A DNA stretch of 64,000 nt from a virus (Duplodnaviria > Heunggongvirae > Uroviricota > Caudoviricetes), in IMG/VR virus record IMGVR_UViG_3300045988_150439; one strand, written 5' to 3'. The position numbers were made by a program, and so were the translations under genes. Below the pieces are notes generated by a model. That model saw only the letters and a program-made list of their open reading frames with translations. It was not told the origin of the DNA and searched no databases. Position 1 is the first letter of the stretch. Each line of letters starts with the position of its first letter. Below, one piece after another: positions 14,475 through 59,095 of the stretch.

Positions 14475-14549
14475 GATGGTGTAGCTCAGCGGTAGAGCAG
14501 TTGGCTGTTAACCAACTGGTCGGTGGTTCGAATCCACCCACCATCGCCA
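14475..14549 (+). tRNA. tRNA-Asn (anticodon GTT)
   Basis: Cloverleaf by eye: acceptor gatggtg/caccatc, D-arm gctc..gagc, anticodon stem gttgg/ccaac loop ctGTTaa, T-arm ggtgg-ttcgaat-ccacc, encoded CCA. Confidence 0.85.
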
Positions 14550-14551
14550 AT

Positions 14552-14627
14552 GCCGGTTTAGCTCAGTTGGTAGAGCACCTGCCTTGTAAGCAGGATGTCA
14601 GCGGTTCGATCCCGTTAACCGGCACCA
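14552..14627 (+). tRNA. tRNA-Thr (anticodon TGT)
   Basis: Acceptor gccggtt/aaccggc, anticodon stem cctgc/gcagg loop ctTGTaa, T-loop ttcgatc, encoded CCA. Confidence 0.85.
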
Positions 14628-14720
14628 ACACAACAGGTAAGAGCATTGGGCGAATCGGCGATACTGACCCACAAGCCCGTAAATCGATAGAGTCAGACCA
14701 GTGCTCTTACCGTTGTGAGG
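14626..14720 (+). ncRNA. long hairpin unit 1 (possible small stable RNA)
   Basis: 15-bp stem acaacaggtaagagca / tgctcttaccgttgt (one mismatch) enclosing ~55 nt; shares stem-base cacaac/gttgtg with units 0 and 2. Confidence 0.3.
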
Positions 14721-14764
14721 AAGTGCAGCTCTTTGAAGCAACCAGAAGATAAGCATCTGGCTTC

Positions 14765-14850
14765 ACAACACAACGATAAGATCATTACGGTTAATCGTCG
14801 TTCATGTGCACAATGACTGGTCGAAAGGTAGTGATCTTACCGTTGTGATG
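14765..14850 (+). ncRNA. long hairpin unit 2 (possible small stable RNA)
   Basis: 16-bp stem cacaacgataagatca / tgatcttaccgttgtg (one mismatch); 3' flank cttaccgttgtga[g/t]gaa shared with unit 1. Confidence 0.3.
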
Positions 14851-14947
14851 AATGCACAGGCTGATGTGCCGCAACTACAGTAGTGCGCGCTTTGCGGGGC
14901 TTGCTACAACCCTGTGTCGGAGTTCAGCACCGACCATCACAATAGCT

Positions 14948-15034
14948 GGAGAGTAGGGAGCATGGTGCTCAAGCGGTCTTGAAAACCGTCCCATTGCGCA
15001 AGCGATGATGGTTCGATTCCATTACTCTCCGCCA
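14948..15034 (+). tRNA. tRNA-Ser (anticodon TGA), type II
   Basis: Acceptor ggagagt/actctcc, anticodon stem gcggt/accgt loop ctTGAaa, long variable arm, T-loop ttcgatt, encoded CCA; about 87 nt. Confidence 0.75.
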
Positions 15035-38171: not shown

Positions 38172-38660
38172 TAGCACCAACCACTGCGGTGAGTAGCCAG
38201 CTCACCGCATTCGTATCAGCTCATTATCCACTGTGGTCTGCAGTCCTCTCTTCCTACATATCTGCTAACCACTGTAGCGAGTAGACAACCTTTCATTCGT
38301 ATCAAACAACCACTATGGTGAGTATTGGAGTGAGATGTCCAGCGAGTATCCACTATGGTGAGTAAGCCTTTGCTGTTTTCAGTGGATATCCACTCGCCAC
38401 AGTGGATACGCTCAAAGATGAGGGCGACAACAACCACTATAGACAGTAAATTTTCCAAGATACCCAGTGACCACTAACCTCGCAGCCCTTGTTTCATCAG
38501 TGTTAGTGATCACTAACATTTAATTCAGTATTTGCATTCTACTGCCTACAGTGGTTATCAACAGATAACGATACTCACTATAGTGGATAGCGAATTACAG
38601 ATATAAGTAAGGCTCACTACAGTGGATAGTGAGCCTTACTACTAACTACAGTGGTTGGGC
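38170..38660. repeat. iteron array downstream of repA (incA-like)
   Basis: About 10 copies of core CCACT(A/G)T(A/G)G in both orientations, e.g. aaccactatggtgagta, atccactatggtgagta, cactatagtggatag, cactacagtggatagtgag. Confidence 0.7.
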
Positions 38661-39715
38661 TATTTGCGAGTCTTTGCCTTGCGCAACTCTTCGAGAAGCG
38701 CCAGTTCTTCTTTACTCAACATGACCATTTTGCCTTCTTTTTCGTCAGGCACAACGTCGATAATGTCATCTTGATTCTCATCTGGGAGGCTATATTCCGT
38801 CTCATCATTATCGATTTTTGTTGATATTTGTGCCTGGCGTAACTTTGGCCGCCTATAGTGGATGACGAAGTAGACCGAGTTTCCGCGCTTAACTTCCGTG
38901 TAATCGAGATATCCTATCTCTCGCAGCTGTTCCATAGCCTTTCTTACCGTCGCATTCTGAGTAATAGTGCGACTTGTCAGATTAAGTCTGGCGCGTAAAC
39001 GGGCTAGTGATATTGGTGCCGGATCAGGCGGCAAACTTTCAATAAAAGTATAAAGCGCCTGAGCGGATTCTTTTCTTGAGAGTTCGTTTATAGCCCGGAG
39101 TTGCAGAAGAACCTTTTTGTCGAACTGGTAGAGTTCGAAAATCTTGGGATCTGCTTTCAGTTCGACCGTATCGTGCTTGACACTATATTTTGCCGTTTGC
39201 ACAAGATGCGTTACGTAAAACTCATCAGAGCCTTTGCTACGGAACGAGATGGTATTTGTGGCAATACGGCTTAGCGAACTGTCCAGGCGTTTGCGTAACT
39301 TCGCTGATGACCTGGCGGTCGGAATGCCACACAGCCTTACAAACTCAACGAACGGCAGCGTGACAGTATCGCCAACGACCTTGTGTTTGGCAAACGCGTG
39401 GATTATTCCCACCCACGTTTTAAAGTCGTTATCCATATCAAGCCGAAGGCCAGAGATCCTTATGTCTTCGTACCCTTCGGCTTTTGCCAGAGACAGCTGT
39501 TTGAGTTCAGCAGAGGCATCCATAGAGACCATTTGCCCCTTTCTTCCTCTGGATGTCGATTTCAGCGTCGGAACGAAGAGGCCCAGACGCATCAAAGCAA
39601 CAGGCTGAACAGTGTTATTAGTGTTAGGAACCAACGTAACAACTTCGCCTGTCTTTTTATCTGTTTCTGAAAATGCTTCAACGATCGCTATGTTTTTATT
39701 GCCGTTTTCGCTCAT
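38660..39715 (-). CDS. repA: iteron-binding plasmid replication initiator (RepA-like)
   Basis: 351 aa minus-strand gene flanked on both sides by iteron arrays; start faces the origin-like region. Confidence 0.6.
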
Positions 39716-39759
39716 TCCAAATGTCTCTTGTTATTCGACGGCTTTGGTGGCCTTTGCTG

Positions 39760-40380
39760 ATTACAGTGGATAGTAGCACTCATCACAGCGGTTATCCTAC
39801 CGTCTATAGTGGTTTTTCTCCTCTCTATAGTGGTTGCTTTGCTCCCTATAGTGGATTATTCGCTCTCTATAGTGGATATCGATCATGTCTGAAGGCAGAT
39901 GGCACAACGGTTTGAGGTGGGCGGGGATCTTATTGGGTCTTTATGGGTCTCTTTGGTTCTCTTTGTGATCTGAATTACTGGATCGGGCCTGTGGATAAAA
40001 ATCAGAGGATTTCAAGAACAGGTAACTCTACTCTTCTGTGGATATTTAAGGACATAAGAATCATGACTAAGAGTAGAGTTTAAAATATATCTATGTATAT
40101 CAGTATGTTAATGAAGAATTAAGTCATTAAGTTATCCATAAAAGACAATGTGCTCTACTCTCTACAGTGGATATATACAGCTCTCCAGAGTGGTTGTTTT
40201 ACTCTTCATAGCGGTTATTCAGCTCTCTACAGAGGTTTCTTTGCTCTCCATAGTGGATGGCAACACCCTTTCAGACCAGTAACCGCAACGGCTAGAGGCG
40301 ATCGGGGATCTCTTTGGATCTTCTATTTGATCTTACTTGGGATCTCTTATTTGGATCTATCCAGTGGATAACTGGGATAA
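39760..40380. promoter_or_regulatory. plasmid-type replication origin
   Basis: Four 21-bp iterons CTCTCTATAGTGG (39801-39884) and five more (40157-40262); perfect DnaA box tgtggataa near 39990 plus two 1-mismatch boxes; AT-rich stretch 40060-40140; GATC clusters at 39915-39985 and 40300-40357. Confidence 0.7.
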
Positions 40381-56884: not shown

Positions 56885-56941
56885 CCTGCTTCTGTATATA
56901 TATAAATAACTACATATTAATTATTAATATACGGAAGCAGG
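56885..56941 (+). repeat. AT-loop hairpin element copy 2
   Basis: Stem cctgcttctgtatat / atatacggaagcagg; matches element at 6621..6671. Confidence 0.5.
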
Positions 56942-57024
56942 CTGTTTTGTATCAGAGACTCCAGACCTGAACATCACTACAGAATCCACTAGAACCCCTT
57001 CCCAGACGCTTTAAAATCGATTTT

Positions 57025-57279
57025 ATGAACCACTTTAAGGAAACCAACATGTCATACCCGACTAATGTCGTTGCGCTCGTAGAGAGCGATTTTCTGGCTA
57101 AGGCTCGTGAAATGATGAAAGATCGCGAGCAGGCTTTCAACTTGTACGAATGGGCAATTAAGTGCTTGCATCTTGGGGAGCATCGCGAACTTGTTGAACA
57201 GCTTTTAGGTGAGTTGATCAACGAGGTGTTTGCCTTGAATGTTCAACTACATGGTCGAGAAAATAATCAATCGAAATGA
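57025..57279 (+). CDS. hypothetical protein (84 aa)
   Basis: ORF only; helical. Confidence 0.35.
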   Translation: MNHFKETNMSYPTNVVALVESDFLAKAREMMKDREQAFNLYEWAIKCLHLGEHRELVEQLLGELINEVFALNVQLHGRENNQSK

Positions 57280-57299
57280 TAGATAAGTACAAACTATTC

Positions 57300-57810
57300 A
57301 TAAAATGAATTGTAAGTGCTAAGATCTGATAGTTTCCAGTCGTAGACTGGAGACTCGACCTGATGGGTGGGGGTAAGCGTCACTGGCGTCAGGTTTAAAA
57401 AAGCTCACTACCAGCGTAGAACCGGTGCCGTTTAGGTGTCGGGGAAGGGGGAACCAAAGTGAGCGGAGACAAGGGTCACTTTATGATTGTCGAGTCTGGG
57501 GTGTTTCGAGAGGTTGAATCCAGTACTCCCCTTCATAAAGTGTGGGAAGATCTCGGTTCTGGGGTGCTGTCATCCATAACTTCCCAAGTCTAAGCTGGCA
57601 GTAGACTTAGACCATAGCTTTTCAGGTTATGAAACGACCAGGTTGGTGAGGAATTTTATACTCACCTCCCTGGGAGAGTATTACCTGAAAAGACAACCTC
57701 TCACTTCGTTCGAGGTGAACTTCACTCACTTCGTTCGTTCAGTTCAGGTTTATAAAAACCTGTTCTGGGAAGTAATTTGTTTATTTTAATAATTATTAAC
57801 ACGCACGCGT
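57300..57810. other. ORF-free structured region upstream of rnhA (candidate ncRNA or origin)
   Basis: About 510 bp with no ORF of 60 aa or more on the plus strand; several stem-forming segments and a GC palindrome acgcacgcgtgtgcgcacgcgcg near 57800. Confidence 0.3.
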
Positions 57811-57861
57811 GTGCGCACGCGCGAGGAAAAAATCGGCGCGGCGCTTGATTCAGGAGTTTAT

Positions 57862-58455
57862 ATGACGACGAAGACACCAGCCCGATCGCAAGAAAAAACT
57901 CGCAAAAAAGCCAAAAACAAAAATTCTCCCCGCGCCAATTCCACAACGCCTGTCGTAGAGTTCAATCCCCAGCTTAAAACCGTGAAAATCTTCAGTGATG
58001 GCTCTTGCCTTAAAAATCCGGGTGGCCCGGGCGGTTACGGTATAGTTCTCCAGTATCGTGGTGAGGAACGCGAGTTCTCAGATGGTTTTCATAGCACCAC
58101 CAATAACCGCATGGAGATGATGGGGGCACTTATTGGGCTGGAGCGTTTGAAATATCCATGCAACGTTATTTTGCACTCTGATAGCCAGTATCTGAAAAAC
58201 GGCATGACACAGTGGATGAAATGGTGGAAACGCAATGGATGGGTGACTTCTGACAAAAAACCGGTAAAGAATGTTGATCTGTGGAAGCGTCTGGATGAGG
58301 CCGCAAGTCGACATAATGTTCGCTGGAAGTGGGTTAAAGGTCACGCCGGGCATCGTGAAAATGAAATATGTGATCGACTCGCGAAGATCGCAGCTTTTTC
58401 CGCAGCAGATATGCCTCACAAGAAAGATATTGGTTTTGTTTACAACAAGCAGTAA
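57862..58455 (+). CDS. rnhA: ribonuclease HI
   Basis: ORF 57811..58455; probable ATG 57862 follows AGGAG. Motifs [34 protein letters not shown]; basic N-terminal extension. Confidence 0.85.
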
Positions 58456-58600
58456 GTAAGTGTTTACCTATCATTTTAAATCATGTATCTTATCAGCGTC
58501 AGGATGACAATGTGTCGGTAAGACACAGTTCCAGGATGGAACGAGAAAGGCGGCTGGCAATCGCCAGCCGCAACTCTTTCTGACACTGGATGGAGTCCAC

Positions 58601-59095
58601 ATGGCACGTCAAACCTATTTCACTTCTGCAACTAAACGTCCTCGTTCACTACGTCAAATTTTGGCCGAATTATTTAGCGGTCGTGTTCTGTCACGTCTTG
58701 ATGAACTAGAGACTGCCGTTCGGTTGCTGAATGAACGTTTAGATAAGCAAGCGTCAGTTGTTGCGAACGTGGGGGCGATTGTTACCTCTGGTTCTTCACG
58801 CGAAGCGAAAAGTACACGGCCTTTAGTGAAGGAGAAAAACAACAAGGACAGTTCGAATGGAAAATTTTCAAAGAAAGAGGCTGAAACCAATGGCCTACGT
58901 TCTCATTATAGTTTCACTGGCGACGATAGCCGTTCCAGCCGGCCAGAGCCTTTTGATGCCGGGTTCATCCATCACCACACCTCCGTCGACGACAATTACC
59001 ACCACTCCAGTAGAGCGTCCTGTCACTCTGGATGGGATGACGGTGGATGCGATACCTCAAGTTCATCCAGTTACTCAGGATCATGCTGTGACTAA
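58601..59095 (+). CDS. hypothetical protein
   Basis: 164 aa ORF; helical N-terminus, low-complexity Ser/Asp/His-rich C-terminus; an overlapping frame (58857..59108) encodes a membrane-like peptide, so the true gene structure is unclear. Confidence 0.3.
   Translation: MARQTYFTSATKRPRSLRQILAELFSGRVLSRLDELETAVRLLNERLDKQASVVANVGAIVTSGSSREAKSTRPLVKEKNNKDSSNGKFSKKEAETNGLRSHYSFTGDDSRSSRPEPFDAGFIHHHTSVDDNYHHSSRASCHSGWDDGGCDTSSSSSYSGSCCD

Follow-up and report, generated by a model that had tools for sequence, protein, structure and literature searches.

The question raised by this locus is what a gene-free and structure-rich interval does beside the ribonuclease (RNase) HI gene of a tailed phage. The interval covers positions 57300-57810 of a 64,000-nucleotide (nt) stretch of viral DNA, hereafter called the window (IMG/VR record IMGVR_UViG_3300045988_150439, Caudoviricetes). 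The original prediction, made from the letters alone, had offered two explanations, a structured non-coding RNA (ncRNA) or a lytic origin primed through an R-loop and processed by RNase H. The locus is probably a stand-alone gene for a discrete, stable and structured ncRNA that acts as a folded molecule. This RNA appears to run on the plus strand from about 57332 to about 57790, some 450 nt, and is an undescribed RNA family of SSU5-type phage-plasmids from Escherichia coli, Salmonella and Klebsiella, new and without a match in Rfam. The window itself is assigned to the SSU5-type phage-plasmids because positions 56900-58500 are 98% identical to the Escherichia phages CMS-2020a, PhiR41_1 and Cyrano, 81% to Salmonella phage SSU5 and 78% to Klebsiella phage-plasmids. 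No description of the RNA was found in the literature on SSU5, pHCM2 and phage-plasmid ncRNAs, and the only study covering the element (Cyrano in E. coli LF82) handled the segment as a hypothetical protein.

The gap is bounded by the stop codon of a 76-amino-acid (aa) gene at 57279 and by the ATG of rnhA at 57862. As had been predicted, it holds no plus-strand open reading frame (ORF) of 60 aa or more. The longest are of 48 aa (TTG start, 57643-57789) and 44 aa (GTG start, 57459-57593), and the minus strand offers ORFs of at most 35 aa within the gap plus a 74-aa ORF (57722-57946) overlapping its 3' edge. A 510-nt stretch free of ORFs is nothing unusual in itself. Among the relatives, the 48-aa ORF is disrupted by 1-3-nt indels in a hairpin loop, and the 44-aa frame was rejected as a gene since indels of 1-2 nt cause frameshifts in it or cut it short in 16 of 56 unique sequences, whole clades included. 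The latter frame is the one annotated in Cyrano:

57459..57593, plus strand: 44-aa GTG ORF, CYRAN_81 of phage Cyrano (OV696614); not a real gene; L010 2680-2814 maps onto this ORF

The predicted wealth of structure is borne out by folding. When 57280-57861 was compared with 100 shuffles, the plus strand reached -188.7 kcal/mol (z -4.94, with 0/100 shuffles as good) and the minus strand -157.0 kcal/mol (z -4.78), against z-scores of -0.49 and +1.30 for equal-length coding stretches in dam and rnhA, respectively. A GC palindrome had also been placed within the interval. It does exist, but at or beyond the 3' end and outside the conserved element:

57800..57824, unstranded: alternating purine-pyrimidine tract of 25 nt, containing the GC palindrome; outside the conserved RNA core
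57806-57823, unstranded: GC palindrome CGCGTGTGCGCACGCGCG, inverted repeat I3; lies at the 3' end of 57300-57810 or just past it

The length of this tract varies among relatives through deletions as well as expansions. The functional unit is slightly wider than 57300-57810 and extends over about 57279-57795.

Conservation of the element is higher than that of the genes around it. In 60-nt windows compared with nine relatives from Salmonella, Klebsiella, Enterobacter and Citrobacter, 57386-57744 is 92-100% identical, against 65-85% in the flanking genes. Moreover, over 28 kb shared with SSU5 the median identity per 150 nt is 77%, and the best windows, at 96-97%, fall at 57450-57750. Sequence constraint on the element thus exceeds that on the surrounding protein genes, and it extends well past the 44-aa ORF on both sides. 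Across the 94 unique sequences of the main clade, 57543-57745 is practically invariant. The element is widespread and occurs once per genome. It is carried by 687 PLSDB plasmids, nearly all scored as non-mobilizable, and by 232 of 5,426 complete E. coli genomes (about 4%), in which the Prokaryotic Genome Annotation Pipeline (PGAP) places no annotation over it. In IMG/VR, 74 contigs carry the element; a further pattern match brought the count to 75, and this one (L045) was discarded as a chance 20-mer match inside a GC-rich coding region. Metagenomes supplied 54 contigs and 28 additional unique sequences, all at least 85% identical and bringing no new diversity. One apparently divergent homologue, L310 (Logan SRR8137545), proved to be a bisulfite-converted copy of E. 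coli type in which every C was read as T, and was excluded. Contigs built from bisulfite reads, such as this one, can masquerade as divergent homologues in public assemblies.

Covariation gives evidence for a folded RNA. An alignment of 56 unique sequences (A2) yielded an RNAalifold structure of 122 pairs, with pairing intact in 99.8% of cells. Double changes occur at 9 pairs (70 cells), compared with a maximum of 3 pairs (7 cells) after the pairing partners were slid; the covariation score was reached by 0/500 shuffles. Since the main clade is too uniform for testing the 3' half, distant relatives were sought through homologues of the 76-aa neighbour, and three loci were found. A covariance model of the 5' half scored L308 with 175 bits and L306/L307/L309 with 93 bits. 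In a second alignment of 13 sequences, which includes the L306 and L308 lineages (A6), 28 of 109 pairs show compensatory double changes, compared with 3-6 in slid controls and again 0/500 shuffles. Helices of the 3' half are among them, for example UGGGAAG/CUUCCCA, which becomes AGGAAGG/CCUUCCU. Amid these changing helices, unpaired motifs such as GAUCUCG(G/A)UUCUGGGG and CAACCUCUCACU(U/C)CGUUCGAG stay constant. The covariation rests on few independent lineages. The minimum free energy of the plus strand lies 32 kcal/mol below that of the minus strand and many G-U pairs are invariant, so the RNA is encoded on the plus strand. The Rfam scan that had been suggested as a check came back empty: none of the 4227 covariance models of Rfam 15 matched 57280-57860 at gathering thresholds, and E<=10 gave miRNA-type noise well below threshold. 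Additionally, ARAGORN reported no tRNA or tmRNA in the region, its only three tRNAs forming a cluster at 14475-15034 (Asn-GTT, Thr-TGT and Ser-TGA), and Tandem Repeats Finder (TRF) at a minimum score of 30 detected no tandem repeats in the RNA.

Transcription of the element can be read from published RNA sequencing (RNA-seq) of E. coli LF82 carrying Cyrano, which is near-identical to the phage of the window. Here, CYRAN_81, a segment inside the element, is listed as an expressed moron (PMC9928086 Table 1, S1 Table). The counts for it and its two neighbours are as follows:

CYRAN_80 (upstream): LB normalised counts 9.5; log2 3.1-5.8 over five conditions (PMC9928086 S1 Table)
CYRAN_81 (inside the element): LB normalised counts 117; log2 6.8-10.35 over five conditions (PMC9928086 S1 Table)
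CYRAN_82 (rnhA): LB normalised counts 8.4; log2 2.6-5.0 over five conditions (PMC9928086 S1 Table)

CYRAN_81 therefore stands 12-40x above both flanking genes, with the largest gap, about 39-fold, in the MB6 samples, a label read as bacteria after 6 h in macrophages. The RNA is abundant in non-induced lysogens. The RNA-seq check that had been proposed is in this way answered by a signal quantified over 135 nt inside the element, and compensatory substitutions and a transcript, the two marks of a structured ncRNA, are both present. With conservation above that of the flanks, plus-strand G-U pairs and a broken ORF, they uphold the ncRNA half of the original prediction. The strongest LF82 signal by far belongs to CYRAN_43, a Cyrano "hypothetical protein" at 723-fold over the prophage background (PMC9928086), which was not located in the window and may be another abundant RNA.

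The anatomy of the RNA and of its upstream signals can be laid out from 5' to 3':

57279..57297, unstranded: degenerate copy of a dispersed palindrome, putative operator; abuts and overlaps the -35 element
57297..57325, plus strand: predicted sigma-70 promoter; -35 TTCATA 57297-57302, 17-nt spacer, extended -10 TGcTAAGAT (hexamer 57320-57325)
57331..57355, plus strand: 5' terminal stem-loop, inverted repeat I5; first 25 nt of the RNA
57356..57745, plus strand: conserved structured core of ~390 nt, from conservation and covariation
57357-72/57378-95, 57403-09/57458-64 and 57477-86/57533-42, plus strand: supported core helices
57543-49/57580-86, 57562-66/57571-75, 57588-97/57602-12, 57613-19/57625-31 and 57638-50/57661-73, plus strand: further supported core helices
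57410-16 (ACCAGCG), 57549-64 (GAUCUCGGUUCUGGGG) and 57694-714 (CAACCUCUCACUUCGUUCGAG), plus strand: conserved unpaired motifs
57700-12 and 57725-37, plus strand: two exact 13-nt direct repeats CTCACTTCGTTCG, 25 nt apart; repeat family D2
57740-57767, plus strand: 3' stem-loop, inverted repeat I6; compensatory changes in the hairpin
57764-57776, plus strand: invariant tail UUCUGGGAAGUAA, followed by a U/A-rich run (3' element 57740..57790)

The promoter matches 8/12, below the threshold of the promoter scan; its -10 element TAnnAT, with a TG ahead of it, is the same in every clade, and the spacer and -35 region vary. Transcription is predicted to start near 57332. The 5' stem-loop exists in at least eight different sequences, all of them hairpin-forming, with compensatory changes at four pairs, and the 3' hairpin is likewise free to change in sequence as long as pairing is kept. 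The 3' end probably lies near 57790. The two 13-nt repeats flank a predicted hairpin CGAGGUGA/UCACUUCG; there are two copies only, without recurrence above chance elsewhere in the window, and they are partly kept in the divergent L306 type. A promoter scan between the RNA and the Shine-Dalgarno (SD) sequence of rnhA gave no promoter-like site.

The palindrome at the promoter is degenerate here and perfect in other clades. It belongs to a dispersed set of about 20 bp with the consensus ATAGGTAAGTrCTTACCTAT. The window contains 15 copies of its core GGTAAGTACTTACC with <=3 mismatches, where 1.55 would be expected, and 0/100 shuffles reach 15. The copies lie at 1190, 6760, 13706, 17353, 20621, 23281, 30690, 30929, 41229, 45913, 50623, 56240, 57279, 58455 and 63434. 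Those whose flanks were inspected are mostly intergenic, and the unit of RNA and rnhA is bracketed by copies. By analogy with the C1 operators of P1, the palindrome looks like the operator of a master regulator, or else like a phage-specific promoter element.

Taken as a mechanism, these features suggest that the RNA would be transcribed from its own sigma-70 promoter, with the -10 at 57320-25, touching a copy of the dispersed palindromic operator. The 5' hairpin and the 3' hairpin with its U-rich tail would protect and delimit the transcript; their role may be purely structural because their sequences evolve freely and only the pairing is kept. The core of ~390 nt is constrained in sequence, many unpaired motifs included, as would be expected if the RNA acts as a folded molecule in contact with conserved partners, be these tertiary contacts, a protein or host machinery. 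The downstream gene, here rnhA, would be transcribed only by read-through past the 3' end of the RNA. As read-through is the only evident route to that gene, the 3' end would also set the high ratio of RNA to downstream mRNA. As a committed guess, the RNA may act in trans, as folded RNA or ribonucleoprotein (RNP), during carriage in the plasmid state; by the same guess, neither a replication origin nor a dedicated rnhA leader is its favoured role.

A second structured RNA is found at the same locus in relatives. The pCAV1099-type Klebsiella phage-plasmids encode a 76-aa protein about 50% identical to that of the window, followed by a gap of 570-650 bp before rnhA. Their RNA, of about 415 nt (L087:3262-3705, L088, L242-L250), is present in 30 PLSDB plasmids and matched nothing in Rfam at E<=5. 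Homology between the two types was considered and rejected: nhmmer gave no match, k-mers and Smith-Waterman scores stayed at shuffle level, and a covariance model of the SSU5-type 5' half, run with filters off, found nothing in the pCAV loci. They are accordingly treated as unrelated, as far as sequence comparison can tell. The pCAV-type fold is significant on the plus strand only (z -4.26 vs -0.96). Furthermore, it has a promoter matching 9/12 (TTTACT-17-TATGAT) that is overlapped by a related palindrome, and among nine sequences it shows 12 compensatory pairs, with compensatory changes in the 5' hairpin and in the terminator hairpin. A strong intrinsic terminator closes the pCAV-type RNA. 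This terminator is not followed by any AT-rich or palindromic region, and 25 nt further on come the rnhA SD and ATG. The RNA is kept where a convergent 148-aa gene replaces rnhA (L244 type).

The gene downstream had been named as an RNase HI gene adjoining the region, and a true RNase HI gene it is:

57862..58455, plus strand: rnhA, RNase HI with a basic N-terminal extension of ~40 aa; Pfam RNase_H E 1.7e-44

Its conserved start is the ATG at 57862 with an SD sequence CAGGAG at 57851-56. An alternative start, GTG at 57811, was rejected; it is not conserved, and the intervening tract changes length out of frame. In two relatives (L251:20831-21595, SSU5_090; L170:17318-17965) the annotated rnhA start lies 50-170 nt too early, reaching into the 3' region of the RNA or the variable tract. 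The phage protein is 53-62% identical to the products of host chromosomal rnhA, the only genes returned when the contigs of the genomes were scanned, and by this measure appears simply to be a host-like enzyme. The slot after the RNA is occupied variably:

Main SSU5 type: downstream gene rnhA
L007: downstream gene betT
L009: downstream gene a 174-aa hypothetical
L306 lineage: a DUF7557-like gene (weak, below the Pfam cut-off), then a Tad2-like gene

The region is non-coding, its helices are kept by compensatory changes, and the RNA is retained when the downstream gene is exchanged. A gene for RNase HI adjoins the RNA in two lineages. With the downstream gene replaced several times and the RNA kept, the link between RNA and rnhA is weak. 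The Tad2-like (anti-Thoeris) gene in the slot of the L306 lineage lies at L306:4105-4413 (Pfam E 2.5e-7), which makes the stretch after the RNA a possible hotspot for accessory or anti-defence genes.

Several points weigh against a stand-alone RNA gene. The LF82 signal was quantified over 135 nt only and its strand-specificity is not established, and both ends of the RNA are inferred, not mapped. The terminator scan gave no plus-strand intrinsic terminator at the SSU5-type 3' end. The near-invariance of 57543-57745 also fits a constraint at the DNA level or a recent recombinational spread. No partner, target or activity was found; compared with the remaining 63.5 kb of the window, the RNA is complementary over 11-12 nt at most, as expected by chance. 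Finally, the shared orientation with the downstream gene, together with the absence of a promoter for that gene, fits a cis-acting leader. Such a leader or attenuator, a long structured 5' leader whose fold and 3' hairpin would control read-through in the style of a riboswitch, attenuator or antitermination system, is rather unlikely. It would account for the lack of a promoter-like site ahead of the rnhA SD on the strand that both share, for the strong pCAV-type terminator only 25 nt before the rnhA SD and ATG, for a transcript 12-40x the rnhA mRNA with both rising together across conditions, and for the alternative pairing partners, two each, of CUUCCCA and CAACCUCUC (I9, I12). However, RNA and structure are kept beside a convergent gene (L244 type, pCAV) or unrelated genes (betT, DUF7557-like plus Tad2-like), ~450 nt is far above known leaders, no Rfam aptamer or leader family matches, and the unpaired motifs are conserved as strongly as the helices. 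Neither a known aptamer nor dependence on the downstream gene was found, and the pCAV-type terminator leaves room for leader-like behaviour. A site acting as DNA, for packaging, partition or protein binding and with incidental transcription, is very improbable. A near-invariant block of 200 bp with direct repeats and palindromes in the region would suit it, but pairing-preserving changes, including G-U pairs that are A-C mismatches on the other strand, are unexpected for a duplex DNA site. The fold is significant for this region and not for the dam and rnhA controls, the pCAV-type folds significantly on the plus strand only, and the steady-state RNA level is high. A transfer origin (oriT) was considered as well, but the oriT survey consulted leaves phage-plasmids out. 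Scarcely credible is a small protein, the 44-aa CYRAN_81 "moron", which owes its standing to the annotated coding sequence in OV696614 and its listing as expressed; it has a GTG start, its frame is broken in whole clades (16/56 unique sequences), and conservation reaches far past it on both sides.

An RNA-primed or transcription-activated lytic origin, as in ColE1 RNA II or mitochondrial LSP/CSBII, would form a persistent R-loop near the 3' end of the RNA and let RNase HI, of the phage or of the host, make the primer. This half of the original prediction found no support and is improbable. The locus does sit in a replication and nucleotide-metabolism module, its 5' half is G-rich (GC skew about +0.3, with an invariant G4A2G5), rnhA is adjacent in two lineages, and two 13-mers, an AT-rich stretch and the GC palindrome succeed one another over 57700-57824, an order that resembles ori-lambda. 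A precedent for RNA-based prophage replication exists in mycobacteriophages (PMC7157519). But conservation is lowest in the AT-rich stretch and the palindrome, the pCAV-type analogue is strongly terminated with no AT-rich or palindromic region beyond, and the RNA is abundant in lysogens that were not induced. An antisense regulator of the ColE1 RNA I kind is missing: Rfam RNAI does not match, and the sole promoter-like site on the minus strand (57338 to 57309) points away from the RNA. Adjacency to rnhA is not conserved, and the RNase H idea is weakened because rnhA is merely one occupant of a variable slot; the locus can do without this gene, although host RNase HI might take over its role. 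The plasmid replicon is located elsewhere:

38660-40100: plasmid replicon; repA 38660-39715, 351 aa, minus strand; 17.5 kb from the RNA
39803-39875: iterons, four copies of CTCTATAGTGG; beside repA
about 39991 and 40038: DnaA-box-like sites TGTGGATAA/TGTGGATAT; beside repA

The repA region is among the most conserved stretches relative to SSU5, whose copy of the gene bears the annotation "replication helicase". These sequence features put the predicted plasmid origin unambiguously at repA and the iterons, not at the RNA.

With a stand-alone structured RNA as the preferred reading, comparison with known systems is instructive. GOLLD and ROOL are large, ornate ncRNAs associated with phages and prophages of Firmicutes, OLE is a further large ncRNA, and these RNAs had no known function when first found. 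The RNA described here shares with GOLLD and ROOL its length of hundreds of nt, many covarying helices, conserved unpaired motifs and a phage location. It differs from them in matching none of the Rfam models for such RNAs even at E<=10, in residing on phage-plasmids of Enterobacterales and in not lying beside tRNA genes. Its size, ornateness and association with phages bring it closest to these two, and it is a member of neither. A bolder and tentative reading would see in it the first of a novel kind of large functional RNA in Proteobacteria, whether ribozyme, assembly of RNA alone or RNP scaffold, of the rank of GOLLD, ROOL and OLE and expressed while the element is carried as a plasmid. 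Under the same reading the RNA, whose levels are higher in the samples read as intramacrophage, would be genetically paired with the 76-aa three-helix protein. Equally tentative is a type-specific function, immunity-, incompatibility- or defence-like, suggested because a non-homologous RNA fills the same slot in the pCAV lineage. Large and highly conserved structured RNAs are rare, and their follow-up has repeatedly led to new biochemistry; one example is the HEARO RNA, later recognised as the omega RNA that serves IS605-family nucleases. The phage-plasmid family that carries the present RNA is among the commonest in clinical Enterobacteriaceae (pHCM2 of S. Typhi, Klebsiella and E. coli plasmids). 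No other segment of the RNA's neighbourhood is as well conserved, and public RNA-seq already shows the transcript, yet its annotation is blank or reads hypothetical protein. Lysogens and inducible phages (SSU5, Cyrano) are available, and the function is directly tractable.

Other systems agree with it in part. The immunity RNAs P1 c4, P4 CI and N15 CA are antisense-type RNAs of 70-100 nt, expressed in lysogens, with complementary targets nearby. Expression in lysogens is shared, as is type-specific replacement of sequence between related elements (SSU5 vs pCAV); in contrast, the RNA has ~450 nt, no complementary target in 64 kb and no match to the Rfam c4 models. Type III toxin-antitoxin systems (ToxIN) resemble the locus in their succession of promoter, abundant RNA, terminator and nuclease gene and in an RNA to mRNA ratio of tens to one. 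Here the downstream gene is exchangeable and RNase HI is not of ToxN type. Moreover, TRF found no tandem repeat array, only the two 13-nt copies, and such a system was rejected because tandem repeats are absent. ColE1 RNA II, a pre-primer processed by RNase H, is likewise a plasmid-borne structured RNA of ~450-550 nt that runs towards an AT-rich region and has G-rich segments, and an RNase HI gene adjoins the RNA here. Unlike ColE1, this locus has neither an RNA I nor an antisense promoter, a replicon of RepA and iterons lies 17.5 kb away, rnhA is not constant and the pCAV-type is cleanly terminated. Extrachromosomal mycobacterial prophages with RNA-based replication carry no repA and have their RNA beside parABS (Wetzel et al. 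2020, PMC7157519). An ncRNA expressed from an extrachromosomal prophage in lysogeny is common to both, whereas the SSU5-type element has repA with iterons, and its RNA lies in a nucleotide-metabolism module.

In that module every gene is on the plus strand. The order is SbcCD-like genes, nrdAB, thyA, dfr, a DnaQ-like exonuclease gene, dam, the 76-aa gene, the gap, rnhA and TerB-like genes. The immediate upstream neighbour is the following:

57049..57279, plus strand: upstream 76-aa gene; phrog_5343 (PHROG E 7e-53)

This gene precedes the RNA in SSU5-type, L306-type, L308 and pCAV-type loci and is the sole neighbour constant across every lineage with an RNA at the locus. Its protein matches no Pfam family. 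An AlphaFold2 model shows three helices (pLDDT, the predicted local distance difference test, 80.6), and Foldseek returned nothing significant for it from the PDB. A Rop-like role was considered and is unsupported because the three-helix model has no significant PDB match; it has no Pfam family either.

Two further regulatory RNA features were seen in the window. At 58497-58545, in the leader of a 164-aa ORF at 58601, two short hairpins (GUCAGGAUGAC, UCCAGGAUGGA) present CAGGAUG and look like putative CsrA binding sites; the match to the CsrB model is weak (16.8 bits) and far below threshold. On the minus strand, 28569-28987 matches the cspA thermoregulator over its whole length (Rfam RF01766, 183.9 bits), from which it follows that the phage-plasmid carries a predicted cold-shock gene together with its regulatory 5' untranslated region.

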